A DNA stretch of 35,129 nt. Origin: a virus. Its lineage: Duplodnaviria; Heunggongvirae; Uroviricota; Caudoviricetes. The notes beneath the pieces were generated by a model. The model had not been told where the DNA came from. It worked only from the letters and a program-made list of their open reading frames with translations, and did not search any database. Shown piece after piece: positions 4,609 through 30,907 of the stretch (position 1 is the first letter of the stretch; every line of letters begins with the position of its first letter). A program made the position numbers and the translations under genes. The stretch is taken from IMG/VR virus record IMGVR_UViG_2563366956_000015, positions 1 to 35,129 of that record; one strand, written 5' to 3'.

Positions 4609-4730
4609 GAAACCAGAACATGCACACACAAAAAAACCGCTTGCCATGCCGCAATCAGTCAGGTTACATTTCCGCTGCACCTCACAAAACGGGTGCCGGG
4701 TTTCGCAGCCTGCTGACTACACAAGCGCAC

Positions 4731-4752
4731 AACCGCGCCAGCGGTTTTTTTG
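4731..4752 (+). terminator. putative Rho-independent terminator (short GC stem plus T-run)
   Basis: AACCGC-gcca-GCGGTT followed by seven or more T, downstream of the 4309..4608 gene. Confidence 0.4.
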
Positions 4753-4930
4753 TGCGTACTGTATTGCCACGTTTTTTTCGCGTCAGAATTATGGCGGGGC
4801 GTACGGGGCCGACTTCGGTCGGGCCGGGTTCTTGTGTAGCCGGTACTGCGAACCTCGTACGTCTCGCCACCCACAGTTTCGCAGCTCTGGATGGTGAGTT
4901 TTCACAACTTACTACACAAGGAGCCACACC

Positions 4931-21919: not shown

Positions 21920-22802
21920 CCTGTCGGAACTGCCGACACCACAGATTATTGAAACGCCGGATTTTGAAGTCATCCTGGCGGAAGTGAAAGAAGACATCAT
22001 TACGTCATTTCCACAGACACAGCAGGCTGCCATCCGGTCAGCCATGGCGCTGGAGTCCGAACCGCTCACGGTCATTGCCCAGGCTTTCGCGCTGCGTGAA
22101 CTGCTGCTTCGCCAGCGCATTAATGAGGGCGCAGCGGCCTGTATGCTGAGCCATTCCACAGGTGATGACCTGGACAACCTCGCTGCCAACATGAACACCG
22201 CGCGGCTGGTCATCACACCGGCCACGGACACCACGGAGGCCGTCATGGAAAGCGACTCCGCCCTGCGGCTGCGTGCGCAGTCTGCATTTGATGGCCTCAG
22301 CGTGGCCGGTCCCACCGGGGCGTATGAATATTTTGCCCGCAGTGCCAGCGGTCAGGTGGCGGACGCGCGCGCAACCAGCCCCGCACCGGCGGAAGTGGTG
22401 GTGGCAGTGTTGTCCACAGAAGGCGACGGCACGGCGACCGAAGAACTCCTGACAACGGTCAGAAATGCGCTGAATGCCGAAGACGTTCGCCCGGTCGGTG
22501 ACCGTCTGACGGTGCAGAGCGCAGAAATCATCCGGTATCAGATTGATGCCCGGCTTTACTTTTATCCGGGGCCGGAGTCGGAACCCATCCTGAATGCCGC
22601 CAGAAACAATCTGGAAACCTGGCTTGCCGAACAGGGCAAAATCGGTCGCGATGTCGCGCTCTCCGCCATCATGGCCGCACTGCATGTTCAGGGCGTTCAG
22701 CGCGTGGAACTGACCAGCCCCGCACAGAATATTGTTATCAGTGATGTGCAGTCAGCGTACTGCACATCGTTCACGGTCAGCACAGGGGGAACCAATGAGT
22801 GA
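21906..22802 (+). CDS. J: baseplate protein J
   Basis: 298 aa; synteny. Confidence 0.85.
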   Translation: MPAVDLSELPTPQIIETPDFEVILAEVKEDIITSFPQTQQAAIRSAMALESEPLTVIAQAFALRELLLRQRINEGAAACMLSHSTGDDLDNLAANMNTARLVITPATDTTEAVMESDSALRLRAQSAFDGLSVAGPTGAYEYFARSASGQVADARATSPAPAEVVVAVLSTEGDGTATEELLTTVRNALNAEDVRPVGDRLTVQSAEIIRYQIDARLYFYPGPESEPILNAARNNLETWLAEQGKIGRDVALSAIMAALHVQGVQRVELTSPAQNIVISDVQSAYCTSFTVSTGGTNE

Positions 22803-23571
22803 ACCGTCACTTCTCCCCCCTTCAGCCAGCGATTTCATGCGCTGCGTGGAGCGGGGAACCGCCCGGTTGTCAGCATTACCTGTCAGCCTTAACCAGCTCT
22901 GGGATCCTGACACCTGCCCGGCAGCCCTGCTGCCTTATCTGGCGTGGGCGCTGTCCGTGGACAGGTGGGATCGTGACTGGACGGAAGAAACAAAGCGCCA
23001 GGTGATCCGTGATGCCTGGGCAATCCACCGCCATAAGGGAACCATCAGCGCCATCAGGCGTGTGGTTGAACCCTTTGGCTATGTCATTAACGTGACGGAG
23101 TGGTGGCAGAACGGCGACCCGCGCGGCACGTTCCGCATTGATATTGGCGTGCAGGACGCGGGTATCACAGAGGAAACGTACTCCGAGCTGACACGACTGA
23201 TCGACGATGCCCGTCCGGTCAGCCGCCACCTTGCCTCGCTGAACATTATGCTGGATACGCAGGGAGTCGCACGTGTGTTTTCCGGCATGCACGACGGCAG
23301 TGAAACAACAATCTGGCCAGCCGCTTCTGCCGGTGTTGAGACTGTTTCGGTGTTCCGGGCATCTCCGGCTTTCTTTGACGGCGACATGCTCACCATTTAC
23401 CCGCCGACACCGTCGGTATCTGTCGATGCGGGGATTGTCATGGGATTACAGGTTACGGGCGATGATGCGGTGACCGTGGAGCCACAGGCGGTGATGCAAC
23501 TGACCGCCACAACCGGAACCCTGACAGCATCAGTGGTATTTCTGGAGGATTCTTTGAGGATTTTTTCATGA
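22795..23571 (+). CDS. I: baseplate/tail formation protein I
   Basis: ORF trimmed to the ATG at 22795, overlapping the J stop; synteny. Confidence 0.75.
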   Translation: MSEPSLLPPSASDFMRCVERGTARLSALPVSLNQLWDPDTCPAALLPYLAWALSVDRWDRDWTEETKRQVIRDAWAIHRHKGTISAIRRVVEPFGYVINVTEWWQNGDPRGTFRIDIGVQDAGITEETYSELTRLIDDARPVSRHLASLNIMLDTQGVARVFSGMHDGSETTIWPAASAGVETVSVFRASPAFFDGDMLTIYPPTPSVSVDAGIVMGLQVTGDDAVTVEPQAVMQLTATTGTLTASVVFLEDSLRIFS

Positions 23572-25349
23572 CTGTAAAATATTTTTCTGTTCTGACTGAC
23601 AAGGGTGCCGCCCGTCTGGCAAAGGCGGTGGCCAGCGGCTCGAAAATATCCATCACCACCATGAAACTGGGGGATGGCGGCGGCAGCCTGCCGGAACCGG
23701 AGGCGTCCATGGAAAATCTGGTGAACACGGTATACAGCGCCCCATTGAATCAACTGAGCATCAGCGCGTCTGATGCCAGCCAGCTTATCGCCGAGATGAT
23801 TATCCCGGAAGATAAAGGGGGGTTCTGGATCCGCGAGATTGGGCTTTTTGACAGCGACGGCGTGATGATTGCCGTGGCGAACTGCCCCGAAACCTACAAG
23901 CCTGTACTCACCGAGGGAAGCGGGCGCACGCAGACGATTCGCATGATTGTTGTGGTTTCCAGTGCTTCGTCTGTCGAACTGAAAGTTGATCCCTCTGTCG
24001 TGCTCGCCACCCGCGCCTATGTTGAAGAATATGTTGCGCAGGAAAAGGAGTCTGTACCGCCGCTGCCTGATGTGTGGATACCGTTTAACGATTCACTGGA
24101 TATGCTTACGGGGTTCGCACCGGGCTATAAAAAAATCACCATTGGTGACGATGTGGTTCAGGTTGCCAGTGATAAACAGGTTAGTTTCAGTCGCGCATCA
24201 ACGGCAACCTATATCAATAAATCCGGTGAACTGAAAATAGCTGAAATTAATGAGCCGCGATTTGAACGCGATGGACTGCTTATTGAAGGGCAAAGAACAA
24301 ACTACATGCTCAATTCGGAAACCCCGGTCAACTGGGGCAAGTCGGTAAATATGGATGTTCACGAAACCGGGACGGACAGTTCTGGTTTTACCTATGGAAA
24401 GTTCGTCTGTAACGATTCTCTGATTGGGCAGTCCCTGCCTGTTAACATGGCATCAGTTGCAGTAACCGGAGCCGTCGATGTTTCAGGCGATAATAAGTGC
24501 GTGACGACATCGTGCAGATTTAAAACTGATCTGGAACTCATGTTAAGGATCAGGTTTGAATCTTACGATGGCAACACATCATCTAACCTTGGATATGCCA
24601 TTGTTAATACGCGATCTTTATCAGTTAAAATCACAGGAGGAGCTGCCGACAGGATCACTGCCCGAGTTAACAAAGATGAGGTTACCGGCTGGATTTTTGC
24701 AGAGGCAACGATTCAGGCAATTGATGAGTCCTACATAACATCGGCAATACAATACACTCCGAAAGAAGGTGGTGTCGTTGAATCAGGAGATTATGTTTTC
24801 CTGTCCACCCCTCAGGTTGAAAATGGCCCCTGCGCATCATCATTTATTATATCGGGTGCAACACCAGCAACACGTGCAAGTGATATTGTGACAGTTCCGG
24901 TTAAGAATAATCTTTATAATCCTCCTTTTACTGTTCTTTGTGAGGTACATAAGAACTGGTATAAAACGCCAAATGCAGCACCGCGTGTTCTTAATACCAG
25001 TGGTCATCAAACTGGAGAGGAAATTATTCTTGGACTCGGTCGTTCGACGGATTACGACGGATTTCCTTATTGCGATATAGGCGGGGCTAACATGCGGGTA
25101 AACGAAAACGCATCACTTGAAAAAATGGTTATAGGGATGCGAGTAAAGTCAGATCAGTCTACATGCTCAGTCAGTAACGGACGGTTATCCGGCGAAACAA
25201 AAACCACATGGTCATATATTCAGAACTCCGCAATTATCCGTATTGGAGGGCGAACGAGTACTGGAGAACGACATCTGTTTGGTCACATTCGTAATTTCCG
25301 CATATGGCATAAAGAATTAAATGACAGGCAATTAAGAGAGGCAATATGA
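23568..25349 (+). CDS. H: tail fibre protein H with a divergent AT-rich C-terminal domain
   Basis: N-terminal ITTMKLGDGGGSLPEPEA...GGFWIREIGLFDSDGVMIAVANCPETYKP matches the conserved P2 H N-terminus as recalled; composition becomes AT-rich from about 24100. Confidence 0.85.
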   Translation: MTVKYFSVLTDKGAARLAKAVASGSKISITTMKLGDGGGSLPEPEASMENLVNTVYSAPLNQLSISASDASQLIAEMIIPEDKGGFWIREIGLFDSDGVMIAVANCPETYKPVLTEGSGRTQTIRMIVVVSSASSVELKVDPSVVLATRAYVEEYVAQEKESVPPLPDVWIPFNDSLDMLTGFAPGYKKITIGDDVVQVASDKQVSFSRASTATYINKSGELKIAEINEPRFERDGLLIEGQRTNYMLNSETPVNWGKSVNMDVHETGTDSSGFTYGKFVCNDSLIGQSLPVNMASVAVTGAVDVSGDNKCVTTSCRFKTDLELMLRIRFESYDGNTSSNLGYAIVNTRSLSVKITGGAADRITARVNKDEVTGWIFAEATIQAIDESYITSAIQYTPKEGGVVESGDYVFLSTPQVENGPCASSFIISGATPATRASDIVTVPVKNNLYNPPFTVLCEVHKNWYKTPNAAPRVLNTSGHQTGEEIILGLGRSTDYDGFPYCDIGGANMRVNENASLEKMVIGMRVKSDQSTCSVSNGRLSGETKTTWSYIQNSAIIRIGGRTSTGERHLFGHIRNFRIWHKELNDRQLREAI

Positions 25350-25624
25350 AAGATTTGACTTTGAAGTTTCATGACAAACAGCAGTTTAAAGCCCTCCTGT
25401 CATCTCTTGGCTGGGAGGAAAATGAAGACCTCCAGAACAAACTGTTAGTCGATGAAATTGGTTTCACCTATACAGAAACAGGGGAAAATGAAGAGGGAGA
25501 ACCTGTCTGTATCCGGAATGACGGTTATTTTGTCAACATTCGTATTCTTGATGATACGTTTGATGTTTCTGTGTTCTCTGATTATGTGGTGGAGCTGGAA
25601 GCACCGCTTCGGGAATGGAGCTGA
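25346..25624 (+). CDS. small acidic protein downstream of the tail fibre (possible chaperone, not canonical Tfa)
   Basis: ATGA overlap with the H stop; GAGAGG RBS; 92 aa. Confidence 0.5.
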   Translation: MKDLTLKFHDKQQFKALLSSLGWEENEDLQNKLLVDEIGFTYTETGENEEGEPVCIRNDGYFVNIRILDDTFDVSVFSDYVVELEAPLREWS

Positions 25625-25633
25625 AGGGAGGGA

Positions 25634-25930
25634 GTGATGGATATAACGCCTGTCCTTCATGCACTTTGTGCCGTGGCTGCGCAGGTACTGGCTGGCATTC
25701 TTACGGGAAACTGGGTTTACGGAGCGATAGCCGGTTGCTCGTTCTTCATTGCGCGTGAACACACCCAGGCAGAATATCGCTGGATTGAAAAATTCGGGAA
25801 AGGGAAACGAATTAACATGCCCTGGTGGGGTGGTTTTGATCCGCGCGTGTGGGATGCCGGAAGCCTGATGGATTTTGCTGCACCAGTGGCAATATGCCTG
25901 TTGTTCTGGCTGCTGGTTAGTTACTGGTGA
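25634..25930 (+). CDS. small integral membrane protein (98 aa)
   Basis: Strong AGGGAGGGAG RBS; hydrophobic segments at both ends. Confidence 0.5.
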   Translation: MMDITPVLHALCAVAAQVLAGILTGNWVYGAIAGCSFFIAREHTQAEYRWIEKFGKGKRINMPWWGGFDPRVWDAGSLMDFAAPVAICLLFWLLVSYW

Positions 25931-26020
25931 AATCACGCCACCCCCCCCCGTCATCTGTGTGGGGTGGTGGCGTCAGGTTAAGGGAATGCGATCAACGACG
26001 AAGATTTGTCTTTGATAGTG

Positions 26021-26125
26021 TTCAGTAAGCCCCCCCTGCAGGAGCAGACTGGAGTTTCTCCCACATATCCTCATCACACCATTGAAAGCCTGCAGGAAAC
26101 TCAATTCTTTCAGGCAGCTTCAGAA
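26021..26125 (-). pseudogene. remnant of a tail protein U-like 3' end (direct repeat of the 3' end of the intact U gene)
   Basis: About 100 nt closely matching 27146-27250 in the same orientation; encodes a ...QxCDEDMxExLQSAxAG... fragment on the minus strand. Confidence 0.4.
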
Positions 26126-26289
26126 AATTATAAATTTCACCAGATACAATATGTAAGAGATTAATATGATGCACTCAAGAACATAAAACAGGCAATATTA
26201 ACTCCGGGACTGTATGTGTTAGAAAAAGAAGCACAAAGTAATCTGGTTTCCTCTGAAGGCGATAAAACTGACATAACGAAGCAGGGACC

Positions 26290-26735
26290 TTTCGACCAGA
26301 TAAAATCAAAATGATTTACAACGAAATAATATTATTGTCACCATTACCAGAGAGGCATCAACACTTAATCATGTCGGTTTTAGTGTTGTTAATACTTCTG
26401 ATATTAACGCTAACCAACGTGCTGATGACTCAGGTAACTGGATATTTGATGATGAAAATATTGTTCGTCATGTGCTGCCACCTGAAAAGTGGCAGGCTAA
26501 AGCAGAATGACAACGAAATCCCCTGCTGCCGGAGGCAAAAGAGAGGATCAGAATCTGGCAATCTGAGTTATTGCCCGGCACCATCAGCAATGCAGACAAG
26601 GGAAGGTTGGCTACGTGGATTGAATATATTAGGGAACTTCAGCAGTTGACGTTCACTTCCGTGATGAATAAAGATTGTTATAATGCGCTGGTATGGCCTG
26701 AATCTCCATCAAAGGGGACTTTTCAGAACGCATAA
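26290..26735 (+). pseudogene. degenerate, frameshifted tail fibre assembly (tfa-like) gene remnant
   Basis: Three frames each carry protein-like segments; the C-terminal piece ...ATWIEYIRELQQLTFTSVMNKDCYNALVWPESPS resembles the Tfa C-terminal W..Y...L....WP..P pattern. Confidence 0.4.
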
Positions 26736-26779
26736 TATATTTATAATCCCGCACTGTTCTACACATGCAAACATTCTTT

Positions 26780-26804
26780 GCCCGCCCCGTGCGGGCTTTT
26801 TTTT
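26780..26804 (+). terminator. Rho-independent terminator (GCCCGC-cccgt-GCGGGC plus T8)
   Basis: Perfect 6-bp GC stem followed by eight T; just downstream of the tfa-like remnant. Confidence 0.65.
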
Positions 26805-26967
26805 GCCGCAAAGACACAGTAATAAACGGGATTGTAATCAGAGCAACAAAAACACAAGAAACATTTTCATTAATGATAATGACAATTAAAAATATTGCAT
26901 TGAATGAATACCGTTCAATATAATCCCCCTGCAAGCAGAAAAATTAAATCTTCACACAATGCATGCC

Positions 26968-26990
26968 GCCCTCTTTGTGAGGGCTTTTTT
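26968..26990 (+). terminator. Rho-independent terminator (GCCCTC-tttgt-GAGGGC plus T-run)
   Basis: Perfect 6-bp stem followed by TTTTTT. Confidence 0.6.
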
Positions 26991-27083
26991 ATTTCCCGAA
27001 TATCACCATTGCCTTCATCGGGCGATTTATATATAGTCAGAATGTATTGACAACATTTGCTTCTTTTCCATGAAGGCAATAAG

Positions 27084-27112
27084 GGAGTGCTTTTTACACT
27101 CCCTCTTTTTTT
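27084..27112 (+). terminator. Rho-independent terminator (GGGAGTG hairpin plus T-run), possibly bidirectional at the 3' end of U
   Basis: GGGAGTG-cttttta-CACTCCC followed by TCTTTTTTT; the stop codon of minus-strand U is adjacent. Confidence 0.55.
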
Positions 27113-27114
27113 AT

Positions 27115-27573
27115 TCAGAATGCCGCTATCGCCATTTTGTCTTTAAGCGTGTTCAGTAAATCACCTGCAGAAGCAGACTGAAGCCTCTCCCGCATATCCT
27201 CATCACACCGCTGAAAGCTGATGGAGAACTCAATCTTTTTTGCCTTCCCGTAGCGATCCAGTTCGGAGCGGGTGGTCTGTAATCCCGTAATCACGTACAT
27301 TCCGTAAATCTGCCCCGTACCATCAATCAGCGGCCAGGGACATCCGGTGTAGGCCTGGGTGTTCAGCAGTGTCAGCGACACCTCACCGCCGGTAATTTCC
27401 GGGTACAGCAGACCGGACAGCGTGATCTGGTCGTCACCTGCGCCAATATACTGCCAGGCCGCAGAACGGTTGATTCGCTCATTTTTCACATGCCGCCACG
27501 TTTTGTTTTGTTGAATCTGTTGATGCGGCAGCGTTTTCAGTTCAAACACAAACATGCCAAAAATCATCATCAT
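27115..27573 (-). CDS. U: tail protein U (P2 gpU-like)
   Basis: MMMIFGMFVFELKTLPHQQIQQNKTWRHV resembles the P2 U N-terminus as recalled; follows T on the same strand. Confidence 0.8.
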   Translation of the reverse strand: MMMIFGMFVFELKTLPHQQIQQNKTWRHVKNERINRSAAWQYIGAGDDQITLSGLLYPEITGGEVSLTLLNTQAYTGCPWPLIDGTGQIYGMYVITGLQTTRSELDRYGKAKKIEFSISFQRCDEDMRERLQSASAGDLLNTLKDKMAIAAF

Positions 27574-27586
27574 AATTGCGTCTCCT

Positions 27587-30500
27587 TTAGTCCCTGTCAC
27601 GGAAGCTGTTCATGCCTGTACGCACCTGTCTGCGCATCTCTTCGCGGACAGCCTCGCCAACCAGTTTTGCCAGTTCACGCGGATTCTGCGTGTTGACGTT
27701 GTGCAGATGCACGTGTATCTCACCGGAAAATACCGCAGCCTGCGTTTGTGGCGCGGTTTCTTTTTTGACGGACTCCGGTCGCAGCGGTGGACGGATAACC
27801 TCCGCAACAGGAACAGATAAAGCCACATCTCCACCCGGACTGTTCACAGCCTCACGCACACGCTGAATACCGGCAACCAGCTCTGTATTTGCCTCGTTGT
27901 GCTGCGGCAGCGTGGACACCTGACGGGCCACGCTCACCACTGGCGCAGGAACATTCACTGCTGGCATCAGAACGTTCACCACAGGTGGAGGCGATACCGT
28001 CTCTCCACCCGGACTGTTCACCGCCTCATGCACACGCTGAATACCGGCAACCAGTTCTGTATTTGCCTCGTTGTGCTGCGGCAGCGTGGATACCTGACGC
28101 GCCACACTCACCACTGGCGCAGGAATATTCACGACCGGAACGGGTGAAGCAGTCTGTCTTCCGGTGAGTTTCTGCCAGAGCGTTGTCAGCGCATCCGCCA
28201 GTCCTCCGCCCGCCGATACCGCCTGCACTGTCCGGATAACCTGCGGTGCTTTCCACTCGCCGTGAATGATTTCGGGTCCGGGCAGGTTTTTGAAAACAAT
28301 ATCGCCGGGACCAGTACGTTTTTTGGTTTCCTCAAGCAGCCCGCCGGTGTTGCTGGCGGTTTTCTGTATCCCCTGCCGGAACCATGCCTCATCCAGCGGG
28401 GATTTACTACCGGGTTTGCCGACCGGATTGTCTGACGTTCCCTTCACCTCTCCGGGAACCGCAGGGGCAGGTATTGCGGGTTTATTGTCACCGTTGTTTT
28501 CCGCTGCATCTGATGACCACGACCATGTTTTCTGCACCATTTTTTTCTGTGCAGGATCCCACTCCCACGCAACCGGCGCTTTTTGTGTGGCCTGTTTTGC
28601 GGCGCTCTCCTGGAGTTTTTGCGTCTCCTTCTGCGCTTCCCTGATGCCATCCGGGATAACACCCAGCCACTTCAGCACTGTGCCGAGGCCATCAAGAAGC
28701 AGTGTCAGCGGCCCCAGCACAATGTTCTGAATGACCCACCCCAGCGTTTTCCCGAACGACTCCCCGGCGCTGGTGCATTTGTCGAGTGTCTCTTTTGAGG
28801 CGTTTGCAGGTTCAAGCAGGCGGGTGAACCATTCCCACACGGCTTTGATGCCATCGCCAATCAGCCCGAACACCGGAGCCAGCGACGCAAAGGCTTCCCG
28901 CAGCGGTTGCAGCGCCTCCCACACTCCGGCAAAAAAGCCGGAAAAAAACGCACTGATCTGATCCCAGTATTTCCACACCAGAACCGCGCCGCCCACCAGG
29001 GCGGCAACAATCAGCCCGACCGGGCTGAACAGCGCCCCCAGTGCACCACCCAGTACCGACACCGCCCCCGTGACCAGCCCCCACAGCGCAGGCAGCCCCG
29101 TCAGGCGCAGTGCCATCGCAGACACAAGCCGGACAGCACCACCAATGCCGCCGCCCCCCGTCAGCAGCCCCAGCCCCAGTTGCAGTTTTGCCAGCGGCCC
29201 CGCAATCAGCCCGAGCGTCAGTGACAGCGCACCGAACGTGGAAGACAGCGCCAGAACACTCCCGCCCGCCAGTACCAGCACCCTGACCAGCGCCTGATGC
29301 TCTCCGACCCATTCGCGCATCCGGGTCACCCACGCGCTCACCGTCTGAACCAGCCCGCGCAAATCCTCGGTCACAGTACCGAAGATGTCCGTGCGTAGCC
29401 CTGAGAACGCACCACTCAGCGCCTGAATATCGCCGGAGAGATTACCGCGCAGCGTCTGCCCCATGCGGTCTGCCACGCCGGTGACATCGCCCAGATTGTC
29501 ACGAACATCAGCCAGCGCCCTCAGGAACTGCGGGATCTGGTCAACGGAAAGGTCTTCAACGGGGGTGCCGAATAACGCAATGGCCGTGTTCGCCCGCTCT
29601 GCCGGGTCACGGATGGCCAGCAGTGCACGGGCGGTCACCTGCATCGCCTGGCGTGCGGTACTGCCCCCCTGAGCAATGGCAGCAGACACCCGTTCGGCAT
29701 TCAGGCCGAGTGTCTCATACGCTGAAACACTGGATTTCGACATATCCGAACCACGGATACTGAACTCCTTCACGGCATCGCCGGTTTTGTCCAGCGCAAA
29801 CTTGCCCTGCTTTGCCATCTCAACCAGCAGACTCATTGTCTCGCTGCCGGTGAAGCCCATGTTGCGGAAGTGGGTGGAATACTCATGCAGAATTTCCGGC
29901 AGTTCATCGCGCATTTCAGCGGACATGCGCTGCATCCCTGCCGTCATCAGGTTAGTAGCCTCGTCACTGCTGGCGGCCAGCCCGTTCTTCATCATGATGG
30001 CAGCGGCCTGAATGCTCTGCGGCACATCAACACCAAAGACGGTCCGCATATCCAGCGCACGACGGCTGATGCGCTCCAGTTCCCGGTCGCCGGTGTCGCC
30101 CAGCGCGCCGAGCGTACTGCGTACCGCACTCACAGCCTCCGCAGCACCGGCAAAATCAGCGAGACCGTCAGCCTGTATGTTACGGATGATGTGGGTGTAA
30201 CGTGCGCCATCCTGTGGGGCTTCCCCTGAACCGGCAGCAATGACCGCGCCGTGCTGTTCGGACTCCATCGCCGGAACCATCATGCGCTGCGCCGCATACA
30301 GGCCGCCTGTACCCGCCGCCATCGCCACAGCCCCTGTGTTGCGCAGTTTTTCCGCCTGTGCCTTCGCGGCCTCATAGCGGCTCTGTGCCTGCGTCACGCG
30401 AGCCAGTGCCTGCCGTTCGCGCTCGAGCTGCTCGTTGTACTGCTGTGTACGGCGAACGGCACTTTCGATGGTGCGGCTGCTGCCGGAAAGCAGAATGCCG

Positions 30501-30907
30501 TGTTTGCGCATTTCGCCTGCCGCCGCCTGGAGTTTTTCGCGCTCGCGCGTGCGCAGCTCGTTCAGGCGCTCAAGACGTGCAGACAGCGCCGTCATCATCT
30601 CCCGCTGCTTTTTGGAGAGAGTGTTACCGTCCTGCTCTGCCTTTCGCAGCCCGGCGAGCCTCTGCTCCGCGCGGGCAATCTGTTCGCGGTATTTACTGAG
30701 ATTTCCGGCGGCACGATCGAACACCTTCGACTGTCTGTCGAGCGCCTGTATGTTGTTCTGCGTCTTCTGAAGGGATTCAGTGAGAGCGCCCACCTGACGG
30801 CGGGCGTTTTCGGTCGGGCGTGTCAGCCGGTCAATTGCGCCAAAGCTGACACGAATATCAAGGGATTTCACTGTTGCGGACTCCGCTACGTTGCGCCGCC
30901 CGCTCAC
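27587..30907 (-). CDS. T: tail tape measure protein (P2 gpT-like), 1106 aa with an internal tandem repeat
   Basis: Long coiled-coil-rich N-terminal region, Gly/Ala-rich TM-like central region; position between E and U. Confidence 0.9.
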   Translation of the reverse strand: MSGRRNVAESATVKSLDIRVSFGAIDRLTRPTENARRQVGALTESLQKTQNNIQALDRQSKVFDRAAGNLSKYREQIARAEQRLAGLRKAEQDGNTLSKKQREMMTALSARLERLNELRTREREKLQAAAGEMRKHGILLSGSSRTIESAVRRTQQYNEQLERERQALARVTQAQSRYEAAKAQAEKLRNTGAVAMAAGTGGLYAAQRMMVPAMESEQHGAVIAAGSGEAPQDGARYTHIIRNIQADGLADFAGAAEAVSAVRSTLGALGDTGDRELERISRRALDMRTVFGVDVPQSIQAAAIMMKNGLAASSDEATNLMTAGMQRMSAEMRDELPEILHEYSTHFRNMGFTGSETMSLLVEMAKQGKFALDKTGDAVKEFSIRGSDMSKSSVSAYETLGLNAERVSAAIAQGGSTARQAMQVTARALLAIRDPAERANTAIALFGTPVEDLSVDQIPQFLRALADVRDNLGDVTGVADRMGQTLRGNLSGDIQALSGAFSGLRTDIFGTVTEDLRGLVQTVSAWVTRMREWVGEHQALVRVLVLAGGSVLALSSTFGALSLTLGLIAGPLAKLQLGLGLLTGGGGIGGAVRLVSAMALRLTGLPALWGLVTGAVSVLGGALGALFSPVGLIVAALVGGAVLVWKYWDQISAFFSGFFAGVWEALQPLREAFASLAPVFGLIGDGIKAVWEWFTRLLEPANASKETLDKCTSAGESFGKTLGWVIQNIVLGPLTLLLDGLGTVLKWLGVIPDGIREAQKETQKLQESAAKQATQKAPVAWEWDPAQKKMVQKTWSWSSDAAENNGDNKPAIPAPAVPGEVKGTSDNPVGKPGSKSPLDEAWFRQGIQKTASNTGGLLEETKKRTGPGDIVFKNLPGPEIIHGEWKAPQVIRTVQAVSAGGGLADALTTLWQKLTGRQTASPVPVVNIPAPVVSVARQVSTLPQHNEANTELVAGIQRVHEAVNSPGGETVSPPPVVNVLMPAVNVPAPVVSVARQVSTLPQHNEANTELVAGIQRVREAVNSPGGDVALSVPVAEVIRPPLRPESVKKETAPQTQAAVFSGEIHVHLHNVNTQNPRELAKLVGEAVREEMRRQVRTGMNSFRDRD
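27845..28190. repeat. two tandem copies of a repeat of about 174 bp inside the tape measure gene
   Basis: Near-identical DNA blocks encode the repeated peptide ...APVVSVARQVSTLPQHNEANTELVAGIQRV(H/R)EAVNSPGG...; also visible as repeated peptides in the plus-strand shadow ORF 27889..28167. Confidence 0.7.

Follow-up and report, generated by a model that had tools for sequence, protein, structure and literature searches.

Gene order and features of the locus

Between positions 25931 and 27114 of the window (the whole 35,129-nucleotide stretch of DNA that was analysed), the last open reading frame of a tail-fibre cassette is followed by a hairpin, by remnants of tail genes and by a spacer that reaches the tail gene U (Table 1). 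As originally predicted, the interval is rich in AT, with a GC content of 0.35–0.46 over 26000–27100 compared to 0.55–0.70 in the phage backbone. On the right it borders on the stop codon of U, and FI is located 5 kb away on the minus strand.

Table 1. Features in and around the interval, with their positions in the window.
Feature	Position	Strand	Remarks
Swapped tail-fibre cassette: distal H (to 25349), orf92 (25346–25624), orf98 (25634–25930)	24054–25930	+	context
GC-rich hairpin without T-run, between the stop codons of orf98 and of the U fragment	25931–25979		folding
U' pseudogene fragment (3' end of tail gene U, residues ~112–152)	25978–26110	-	one frameshift, C7 run at 26030–26036
Last codons and stop of the former resident H	26129–26164	+	frame-0 translation ends with TAA at 26162–26164
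Pseudogene of tfa / P2 G (tail-fibre assembly)	26166–26735	+	Tfa homology, disrupted frame
Lineage-specific convergent intergenic spacer, 379 bp	26736–27114	+	full-length in E. coli relatives only
T1 unit including the invariant TATAAT at 26742–26747	26736–26804	+	pi 0.059 vs 0.121 at U third positions
Terminator T1	26780–26804	+	stem 26780–26796, 6 bp (6 GC), T8
Fast-evolving spacer, except an invariant 12-nt island around TATAAT at 26919–26924	26805–26942		pi 0.149
Conserved non-coding block: 25 invariant nt, T2, 91-nt spacer, T3	26943–27114	+	low variability
Terminator T2	26968–26990	+	stem 26968–26984, 6 bp (5 GC), T6
Terminator T3	27082–27112	+	stem 27082–27104, 8 bp (5 GC), T7; abuts the U stop codon
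Tail gene U, intact, last of the inverted FI-FII-E-T-U operon	27115–27573	-	context

The genes FI-FII-E-T-U are inverted in the RefSeq annotation of the SCU-172 prophage, which is 99.8% identical. H/tfa was likewise convergent with T-U in 31 loci from Serratia, Salmonella, Enterobacter, Pantoea, Erwinia, Citrobacter and other genera. Phage P2 (NC_001895) has the order G, fun(Z), FI...U, D. Due to the inversion, the interval can be regarded as the meeting point of the tail-fibre and the tail operons, of which the first would be V-W-J-I-H on the plus strand and the second the inverted FI-FII-E-T-U on the minus strand.

The original prediction had assigned the interval to the Z/fun hotspot of P2. 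This applies to the left neighbour, which is a tail-fibre cassette as in P2, but not to the right neighbour, which is the U 3' end and not the FI promoter. As the FI-U block is inverted in the prophage lineage, the label is inaccurate. The identity with Z/fun was also contradicted by the lack of Fun(Z), of which no homologue was detected in the whole window by tblastn (E ≤ 0.01). The comparison with P2 is thereby corrected: a widespread lineage within the Enterobacterales has the FI-U tail block in inverted orientation.

In other genera, the corresponding junction comprises 50–150 bp with a single hairpin, whose T-run is usually found on the strand of the fibre operon. In loci of Citrobacter and Kluyvera, the junction between U and the tail-fibre genes holds an invertase of the Hin/Gin type (resolvase family). 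In a Klebsiella locus, the same place is taken by a UvrD-like helicase that gave PADLOC helicase hits. The literature on P2/P4 defence hotspots that was examined mentions neither this junction nor the inversions or the terminators.

Debris of a tail-fibre cassette exchange

Homology to P2 H ends at 24053. From 24054 to approx. 25919, the DNA is 78–88% identical to a lambdoid side-tail-fibre gene and the two small ORFs that follow it, as in phage 21, and the GC content drops from ∼0.55 to ∼0.44 at 24054. Both orf92 and orf98 belong to PHROGs families of unknown function and gave no match in a Pfam search. For both strands, the hairpin behind orf98 has a folding energy of −24 kcal/mol (z −2.7 and −3.1). 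It is probably the convergent-junction hairpin of the donor phage; ST131-type relatives carry a canonical bidirectional terminator at the equivalent place.

U' and the 3' end of the intact U gene are direct repeats (26005–26110 versus 27136–27238) that share 81% identity (E 4e-22), which agrees with the U-like fragment and the direct repeats that had been proposed for this region. The segment 26129–26454 is ∼75% identical to the junction of the H 3' end and the G 5' end of P2 and other prophages. For the last 134 codons of the tfa remnant, tblastn yielded 63% identity to residues 54–187 of the intact Tfa of strain 135, and the remnant was 44% identical to P2 G. Its frame is broken by a TGA codon at 26508–26510 and shifts three times or more within the 5' third (26166–26325), so that the remnant had been correctly described as frameshifted. 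The earlier view that no intact gene is present also held: a 54-aa ORF annotated by RefSeq (26571–26735) is the tail of the tfa pseudogene 3' of the nonsense codon, and a 112-aa ORF (26311–26649) results from reading the tfa remnant out of frame.

Deletions in the tfa remnant differ between relatives; ∼360 bp are gone in TUM9803, and ST131-type prophages keep only the last 128 nt. The latter have the breakpoint between U' and the H tip in common with the prophage studied here and their flanks are homologous, with U' only ∼67% identical between the types. The diversity of the tfa remnant (pi 0.169) was no lower than that of third positions in U (0.121).

Homology together with the comparative pattern identifies 25931–26735 as non-functional debris of one old, partly illegitimate replacement of a tail-fibre cassette. 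The alignment to relatives that had been suggested for finding out what was replaced assigned the debris to the U 3' end of a donor and to the H tip and tfa of the resident. Thus, the proposed scar of a lost cargo cassette stands as a scar for this part of the interval, but the replaced item was a tail-fibre specificity cassette and not cargo or defence DNA. In an initial step, the distal H-orf92-orf98 cassette came from a different phage with matching gene order, with the left crossover in the conserved N-terminal domain of H at ∼24054. This incoming cassette, of a kind shared with lambdoid side-tail-fibre regions, also introduced ∼130 nt from the 3' end of the donor U and probably the donor's junction hairpin. 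The right end of the cassette was joined non-homologously (illegitimately) to the final codons of H in the resident phage, and the resident tfa, made redundant by the swap, has since decayed. The donor arrangement of orf98, hairpin and intact U was not found in the genomes searched. The junction of U' and the H tip serves as a datable marker for the exchange of host-range (tail-fibre) cassettes between P2-type and lambdoid phages, and it also illustrates how such fibre exchanges leave layers of debris.

The spacer and its terminators

The spacer was found at full length in 72 of 5426 E. coli genomes with 86–93% identity and is annotated in none of them. No common laboratory strain seems to be among the carriers. 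It is also present 3' of the intact tfa in strain 135. No deletion was observed within the 379 bp across the 72 genomes, while the neighbouring tfa remnant underwent at least two large independent deletions. The 31 loci with matching gene order from other genera lacked the spacer, and so did the isolated phage genomes and every other viral or metagenome contig that was searched. The searches comprised BLAST against 43 loci found by means of gpU (one genome per species) and against isolated phages as well as pattern scans of viral and metagenome sequences, and they returned only near-identical prophages of the E. coli type, which added no depth for covariation. The pattern of the T2 hairpin alone matched 95 unrelated contigs and is thus a generic terminator sequence. 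Judged by its sequence features, 26736–27114 is an intergenic spacer of the lineage's own with three co-oriented terminators.

Under strict criteria, three intrinsic terminators were detected on the plus strand and none on the minus strand, spanning 333 bp. The prediction of three terminators within ∼330 bp was therefore borne out, and their number is beyond the shuffle expectation: 500 dinucleotide shuffles of the interval contained 0.012 terminators on average and one at most, and none reached three. None of the three has a T-run on the minus strand. All of them were kept in 13 of 13 distinct variants, strain 135 included. Since the same spacer with all three terminators follows the intact tfa in this strain, they are not by-products of tfa decay. 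The T2 stem was invariant in all eight distinct rows counted, and the T1 stem was invariant except for its first pair in the clade L066 (G at 26780 to T). The T3 stem was 100% paired, with one compensatory double change from G-C to C-G in two sequences that represents a single event.

Their sequence features suggest that T1–T3 stop transcription of the fibre operon. In a second step of the proposed mechanism, plus-strand transcripts would be ended here before they run antisense into U and T. T3 probably doubles as the 3' hairpin of U mRNA. A single hairpin is enough in other genera, and the three terminators of the spacer exceed this number. Once the terminators were left out, local alignment of the T1 and T2 units as possible paralogues lacked significance (79 of 1000 shuffles scored equally high). 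A perfect inverted repeat of 11 bp (27008–27018 and 27070–27080, z −5 folds) was rejected as a conserved helix: it has uncompensated changes in most variants, and five of its eleven pairs depart, by unpaired cells only.

The T1 unit and 26943–27114 were ∼3–5 times less variable than U third positions. The variable columns of 26943–27114 numbered 23 out of 172, compared to 50 out of 152 third positions of U (Fisher p 3e-5) and to 55 out of 124 columns of the neutral spacer. After removal of stems and T-runs, the block still had only 16 variable columns out of 118 (p 3e-4). The 91-nt spacer between T2 and T3 contains an invariant core (27019–27062) including TATAGT at 27032–27037. Diversity peaked with a pi of 0.374 at 26928–26942, and by its variability 26805–26942 is considered to evolve neutrally. 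The third positions of the U 3' codons that adjoin the spacer had a pi of 0.116. Termination alone does not explain the conserved 25 nt before T2 and the 91 nt between T2 and T3.

We infer from these values that the T1 unit and 26943–27114 may be under purifying selection beyond the stems themselves, which would be the third step of the mechanism, with one to three short terminator-ended RNAs as the foremost candidate for its cause. The spacer variants fall into only ∼4 clades and therefore, the lowered diversity could partly reflect recombination history and not selection.

Interpretation and comparison with known systems

The interval is best read as the scar of a tail-fibre swap combined with a stack of terminators, and as largely ordinary. 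We consider it likely that it is a zone of an E. coli P2-family prophage in which two late operons converge; this estimate covers the whole explanation, that is the convergence zone, the tail-fibre scar, the lineage's own spacer with its terminators and the constrained parts. Ordinary phage mosaicism and terminators at operon ends account for what looked like an odd island, and the main value of this reading lies in annotation and interpretation.

Small RNAs from the interval, as raised by the original prediction, are possible. It is conceivable, though held tentatively, that the conserved parts of the spacer represent up to three trans-acting prophage sRNAs ending at T1, T2 and T3. They are predicted on the plus strand at ∼26754–26804 (∼50 nt), ∼26931–26990 (∼60 nt) and ∼27044–27112 (∼70 nt), with starts ∼7 nt after each -10-like hexamer, and would act like other prophage sRNAs of the Hfq type. 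This idea adds to the explanation by scar and terminators and does not replace it. T2 and T3 are orphan terminators, located 3' of the strong T1 without an ORF in between, and the three units always co-occur and are restricted to this prophage lineage. Conserved -10-like hexamers (TATAAT, TATAAT and TATAGT) precede each terminator stem by 33–50 nt; the first and the third are invariant, and the matching -35 is TTGCCA in most variants, although the -35 elements are weak, and the second forms a conserved island in otherwise neutral DNA. The invariant stretch 26943–26967, which directly precedes the T2 hairpin, is predicted to be single-stranded, a layout that matches a seed region, and the low variability of the block persists without stems and T-runs, both against U third positions and against the adjacent spacer. 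However, promoter-like sites were not enriched in a consensus scan (4 versus 4.3 in shuffles), and the 12-nt TATAAT island is not individually significant (∼0.25 in a rough estimate that allows for the number of windows). There was no covariation outside the terminator stems, and RNAalifold kept only the terminator stem of the putative T2 RNA, so that 5' pairing was dismissed. The proposed search with covariance models did not lend support either: the Rfam 15 scan of 25600–27400 gave at best 20 bits, mainly on a terminator hairpin, compared to a gathering score of 41 bits, so that no family reached even a weak score in the interval, and the scan of the whole window at gathering thresholds yielded nothing there. 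No complementary target of at least 13 nt was present within the 35-kb window, in which the longest complementary runs had 11–12 nt, the chance level. A TATAAT-like element had been noted ahead of the first terminator and does exist as TGTTATAAT at 26676–26684, ∼96–104 nt 5' of T1; it is located in the tfa codons C-Y-N, and relatives read TACAAT. In its more specific form, with 26736–26804 and 26943–27114 as a lineage-specific tandem array of two to three independently transcribed sRNAs of ∼50–70 nt, the proposal is doubtful. If true, such an array would occupy a moron position 3' of the fibre genes, be expressed in the lysogen and regulate genes of the host or of competing phages. If the conserved 172-nt block encoded sRNAs, it would be a prophage-borne regulator in a number of clinical E. 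coli, among them some of ST131.

Conversely, the whole interval including the spacer may be neutral junk composed of older scar layers, namely terminators borne by former cassettes and vestiges of U 3' ends, with a low diversity caused by recombination or hitch-hiking with the tail module. The process that makes such layers is documented next door by U' and its hairpin, the central part of the spacer evidently evolves neutrally, and in other genera the short junction with one hairpin is enough. In addition, 26912–26940 resembles the U 3' end 'GTTCAGTAAATCACCTGCAGAAGCAGA', and in a restricted comparison only 2–4 of 1000 shuffles scored as well. This resemblance is short and weak, and 81 of 1000 shuffles matched it when the whole spacer was tested; as a third vestige of a U 3' end, it is only weakly suggestive. 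The low diversity is limited to two blocks with more variable DNA on both sides, including the U 3' codons, and the spacer remained without deletions while the tfa remnant lost large pieces. We therefore regard neutral junk throughout as unlikely. That a cargo cassette was lost from a hotspot of the P2 type, as had been proposed initially, is highly improbable, be it a moron or a defence cassette: the junction is indeed variable in the wider lineage, with the invertase and the helicase described above, but all recognisable remnants come from tail genes (U, H or tfa), Fun(Z) is missing, the spacer lacks any remnant ORF under codon-like constraint and none of the 72 E. coli relatives carries a gene inside it. 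An unannotated gene for a small protein in the spacer is hardly credible. An open frame on the minus strand encodes a hydrophobic sequence (IFLIVIIINENVS..ALITI..TVSL) over ∼46 codons in several variants, and a 25-codon ORF on the plus strand (26959–27036) and a 9-codon ORF on the minus strand are also present. Nevertheless, the variable columns of the minus-strand frame are distributed evenly over the codon positions (17, 16 and 19 of 43 each), which indicates that it is non-coding, and its start codon is not conserved. The 25-codon ORF contains T2 and is frameshifted in one clade by a change in the T-run length, and the ATG at 27070 is missing in another clade.

The reading as scar and terminator stack can be compared with several known systems. 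The Z/fun region of P2 is a variable locus. Like the interval, the G-fun(Z)-pF region of P2 directly follows the tail-fibre and assembly genes, includes several hundred non-coding bases that end in a Rho-independent terminator (of the V operon in P2) and is a non-essential, variable position. P2 has one annotated terminator there, whereas the prophage has three. No DNA similarity was detected between the interval and the P2 G-fun spacer, in which a simple scan gave no terminator match.

According to Haggard-Ljungquist et al. (1992) and later work, tail-fibre modules of the H/tfa type were reportedly exchanged among P2, Mu, P1 and lambdoid phages by horizontal transfer. As in such mosaic fibre cassettes, the conserved N-terminal domain of H was kept and the distal H and accessory ORFs were replaced, with a drop in GC content at the joint. 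Unlike after a clean mosaic swap, the prophage still has the duplicated U 3' end and a whole decaying tfa, a remnant that also occurs in ST131-type prophages.

The G/Gin system of Mu and the C/Cin system of P1 are invertible tail-fibre segments; an invertase is found at the same U/tail-fibre junction in the relatives from Citrobacter and Kluyvera. As with invertible fibre segments, a second copy of the H tip and tfa lies 3' of the active fibre genes. In contrast to Mu and P1, the interval has no invertase gene, with no resolvase ORF in or beside it, and the remnant is direct and not inverted. A crossover site similar to gix or hix was not present in the interval; the best match of the window (17/26) is located elsewhere.

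Prophage-encoded sRNAs of the Hfq type with their own promoter and intrinsic terminator include IsrK and DicF, and IsrK is located at 4677–4751 of the window. The putative sRNA units of the spacer share the layout of these sRNAs, that is a short intergenic unit in prophage accessory DNA with a GC-rich hairpin, a U-run and a conserved unstructured 5' part. They differ from IsrK and DicF in that they have no Rfam match and that their promoters are only consensus-like.

Gene order around the interval

The prophage of E. coli SCU-172, which adjoins ihfA/pheT, is 99.8% identical to the window over the 2.4 kb tested, and the gene order was taken from the RefSeq annotation of this copy and an ORF listing. 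On the plus strand, P2-family head and lysis genes are followed by V, W, J, I and H, the small ORFs orf92 and orf98 and then the interval in question (25931–27114). U, T, E, FII and FI come next on the minus strand, before D and ogr return to the plus strand. Phage P2 has H and G, then a terminator, fun(Z) in opposite orientation, pF, FI, FII, E, T, U, D and ogr; thus, the FI-U block is inverted in the window. Among 43 loci recovered with gpU, one genome per species, the tail-fibre genes were convergent with T-U in 31 (Serratia, Salmonella, Enterobacter, Kosakonia, Pantoea, Erwinia, Citrobacter, Edwardsiella, Symbiopectobacterium and others), while U-D collinearity was kept only in distant relatives. 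The inversion is thus a trait of the lineage and no accident. The interval is the place where two convergent late operons meet and not P2's G-FI gap, so that the P2 Z/fun position given in the original prediction could not be upheld; a homologue of P2 Fun(Z) was absent across the whole window.

Features of the window and of related loci (π from 13 distinct variants in approx. four clades; positions without locus name refer to the window)
Feature	Position	Strand	π	Basis or remark
isrK match	4677–4751	+		Rfam gathering level, 64 bits
C4 antisense RNA match	4787–4874	+		Rfam gathering level, 83 bits
I ORF	22732–23571	+		baseplate gene
H	23568–25349	+		RefSeq of SCU-172 copy, ORF listing
orf92	25346–25624	+		as H
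orf98	25634–25930	+		as H
GC-rich hairpin	25931–25979			folding; directly 3' of orf98
U' fragment	~26110 to stop at 25978–25980	−		U residues ~112–152
Resident H tip	26129–26164			last few codons of tail-fibre gene; sequence homology
tfa (P2 G) pseudogene	26166–26735		0.169	dead
T1 unit	26736–26804		0.059
T1	26780–26804	+		canonical terminator
Fast spacer, part	26805–26913		0.149
Fast spacer, part	26928–26942		0.374
Constrained block, part	26943–26990		0.027
T2	26968–26990	+		canonical terminator
Constrained block, part	26991–27081		0.050
T3	27082–27112	+		canonical terminator; π of 27082–27114, 0.060
U	27115–27573	−	0.027 (first positions), 0.121 (third positions)	as H
T (tape measure)	27587–30907	−		as H
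Direct repeat in T	27797–27958 / 27971–28132	−		162 nt, 86% identity, spacing 174
DNA invertase	L036 4531–5088			Citrobacter youngae; resolvase family (Hin/Gin-type)
DNA invertase	L024 4724–5095			Kluyvera; resolvase family (Hin/Gin-type)
UvrD-like helicase, 661 aa	L026 4818–6803			Klebsiella spallanzanii; PADLOC helicase/GajB-like hits

Elsewhere in the window, the isrK and C4 matches sit side by side and are a P1/P7-type c4-like antisense immunity RNA module in a P2-family prophage. The direct repeat in T doubles a block of ~55 aa of the tape-measure protein, close to its C-terminus. This protein has 1154 aa in the SCU-172 copy and 1106 aa in the window; its length therefore varies between near-identical prophages.

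The tail-fibre cassette and its scar

P2 homology of H ends at 24053. The sequence that begins at 24054 is, up to the orf98 end, 78–88% identical to the distal side-tail-fibre gene and its two following small ORFs in phage 21 and many lambdoid phages, and GC falls at the same point. The fibre tip and accessory ORFs are therefore a horizontally exchanged cassette. As in many lambdoid phages, orf92 and orf98 stand in place of tfa 3' of the fibre gene. They belong to PHROG families phrog_1361 and phrog_1443, where no function is assigned, neither contains a Pfam domain, and the phage 21 orf98 is named putative membrane protein. The two might form a fibre-accessory pair not yet characterised. The I ORF exceeds the 179-aa I of relatives by ~100 codons. 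In both SCU-172 and TUM9803, I carries a RefSeq flag as partial ('missing C-terminus'), so that the I/H junction also looks rearranged.

U' has one frameshift in a C7 run, and 106 nt of it (26005–26110) share 81% identity with the 3' end of the real U (27136–27238). The orf98 stop, the hairpin and the U' stop form the compact junction of gene stop, hairpin and U stop that is typical of the lineage in other genera, and the cassette must hence have come by way of a further phage with this gene order, carrying part of that phage's U. At its right end the cassette runs into the resident H tip, so that the resident tfa is left isolated 3' of it. The last 134 codons of this pseudogene share 63% identity with intact Tfa from strain 135 but contain a TGA (26508–26510), and its first third has at least three frame changes.

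ST131-type prophages (L004 and relatives) share this architecture. Their orf98 homologue precedes a bidirectional terminator and a piece of the U 3' end; next comes H-tip/tfa-5' sequence, which a large deletion separates from the final 128 nt of tfa. In the multiple alignment, the U breakpoint is identical in both types and the non-U sequence beyond it is homologous; the U'/H-tip junction therefore has a single origin. Identity of U' between the types is ~67%, compared to 92–95% for functional U of the same prophages. The tfa remnant was eroded differently in each line, by frameshifts and a nonsense codon in the window, a deletion of ~360 bp in TUM9803 and a larger one in the ST131 type, and its diversity at least equals that of U third positions. 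This is the pattern expected of neutral decay, and the left two thirds of the interval are best read as a recombination scar decaying neutrally since. The original prediction was borne out in its description of an AT-rich interval (GC down to 0.35–0.46) with a U-like 3' fragment, a frameshifted tfa-like remnant, three intrinsic terminators and no intact gene, as the 54-aa 'hypothetical protein' of RefSeq is the end of the tfa pseudogene. Its scar of a lost cargo cassette stood as a scar, though of a tail-fibre swap, since nothing cargo-like was found in this part of the interval.

Terminators and apparent constraint in the spacer

The 379-bp spacer (26736–27114) between the tfa and U stops was found in full length in 72 out of 5426 complete E. 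coli genomes (86–93% identity), always at the same locus and never annotated. As it also follows the intact tfa of strain 135, T1–T3 belong to the working phage design and are not decay products. Other genera lack the spacer; their junction has 50–150 bp and a single hairpin, whose T-run is usually on the strand of the fibre operon. The spacer is likewise missing from isolated phage genomes and from every other viral or metagenome contig searched. A heavily deleted prophage of E. coli E100341 (L050 1–3400), in which spacer and U-T genes now abut a truncated terminase/portal remnant beside an IS421 element, yet keeps all 379 bp.

Strict criteria gave three terminators on the plus strand of the interval and none on the minus strand; 500 dinucleotide shuffles yielded 0.012 on average and never three. 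All stems are kept in 13 of 13 distinct variants: T2 is invariant, T1 lacks its first pair in one clade only and T3 shows one compensatory change from G-C to C-G. The simplest predicted function is that T1–T3 would keep plus-strand read-through of the fibre operon, which is strongly expressed, from reaching U and T as antisense transcription. T3 adjoins the U stop codon, and the U transcript probably also has it as its 3' hairpin. A minus-strand U-run is lacking in all three hairpins, which do not explain termination of the U operon.

Between clades, the fast spacer (26805–26942) differs by 21–28% and U third positions by 11–20%, but the 172-nt block 26943–27114 by only 0.6–9%, also with stems and T-runs removed (Fisher tests on variable columns, which share a phylogeny, p 3e-4 to 1e-7). 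Unlike the adjacent tfa remnant, the spacer had no deletion in any of the 72 genomes. Given the low divergence outside the stems and the lack of deletions, something beyond the hairpins seems constrained, and the 172-nt block is the sole element that could raise the interest of the interval. Alignment with related prophages agreed with neutral decay for the tfa remnant; the terminators and the low-diversity blocks of the spacer are conserved.

Protein coding is an unlikely cause. In a long minus-strand frame that is open and encodes a hydrophobic stretch, the variable sites are evenly distributed among codon positions (17/16/19) and the start is not conserved; a 25-codon plus-strand ORF includes T2 and has a frameshift in one clade, and the ATG at 27070 is missing from another. 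A further conserved RNA helix found no support either: a striking 11-bp inverted repeat of the window is broken without compensation in most variants, and RNAalifold retained no helix other than the terminator stem. Small-RNA genes are a possible but rather doubtful reading. The layout of the units is typical of such genes, with an invariant -10-like hexamer 33–50 nt 5' of each terminator (TATAAT 26742, TATAAT 26919, TATAGT 27032), of which the one at 26919 is a conserved island amid otherwise neutral DNA, and no variation occurs in the 25 nt 5' of the T2 hairpin, which are predicted to stay unpaired. However, the Rfam search for structured RNAs matched no known family in the interval, promoter-like sites are not in excess, no complementary target was found within the window and the carriers include no evident well-studied strain. 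Somewhat less probable still is a spacer of pure layered junk together with hitch-hiking; a short resemblance of 26912–26940 to the U 3' end lends it weak support.

The junction in the wider lineage

The U/tail-fibre junction is variable across relatives. The invertase in Citrobacter and Kluyvera probably marks an invertible fibre segment, and with the Klebsiella helicase gives some substance to the junction as a hotspot in the wider lineage. In the E. coli lineage neither cargo nor a cargo remnant was seen there, and the interval of the window has no invertase or gix-like site. In phage P2 (L155 3276–3667), 365 non-coding bases from the G stop to the annotated V-operon terminator hold four promoter-like sites vs 1.5 expected; we know of no function assigned to this lengthy untranslated region 3' of the fibre genes.

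The original interpretation is partly supported: there is a scar, though of a tail-fibre swap and not of cargo, and short RNAs are a possibility. The interval adds a new example, so far unannotated, to known kinds, namely, mosaic-junction pseudogenes and intrinsic terminators at a convergent operon end.
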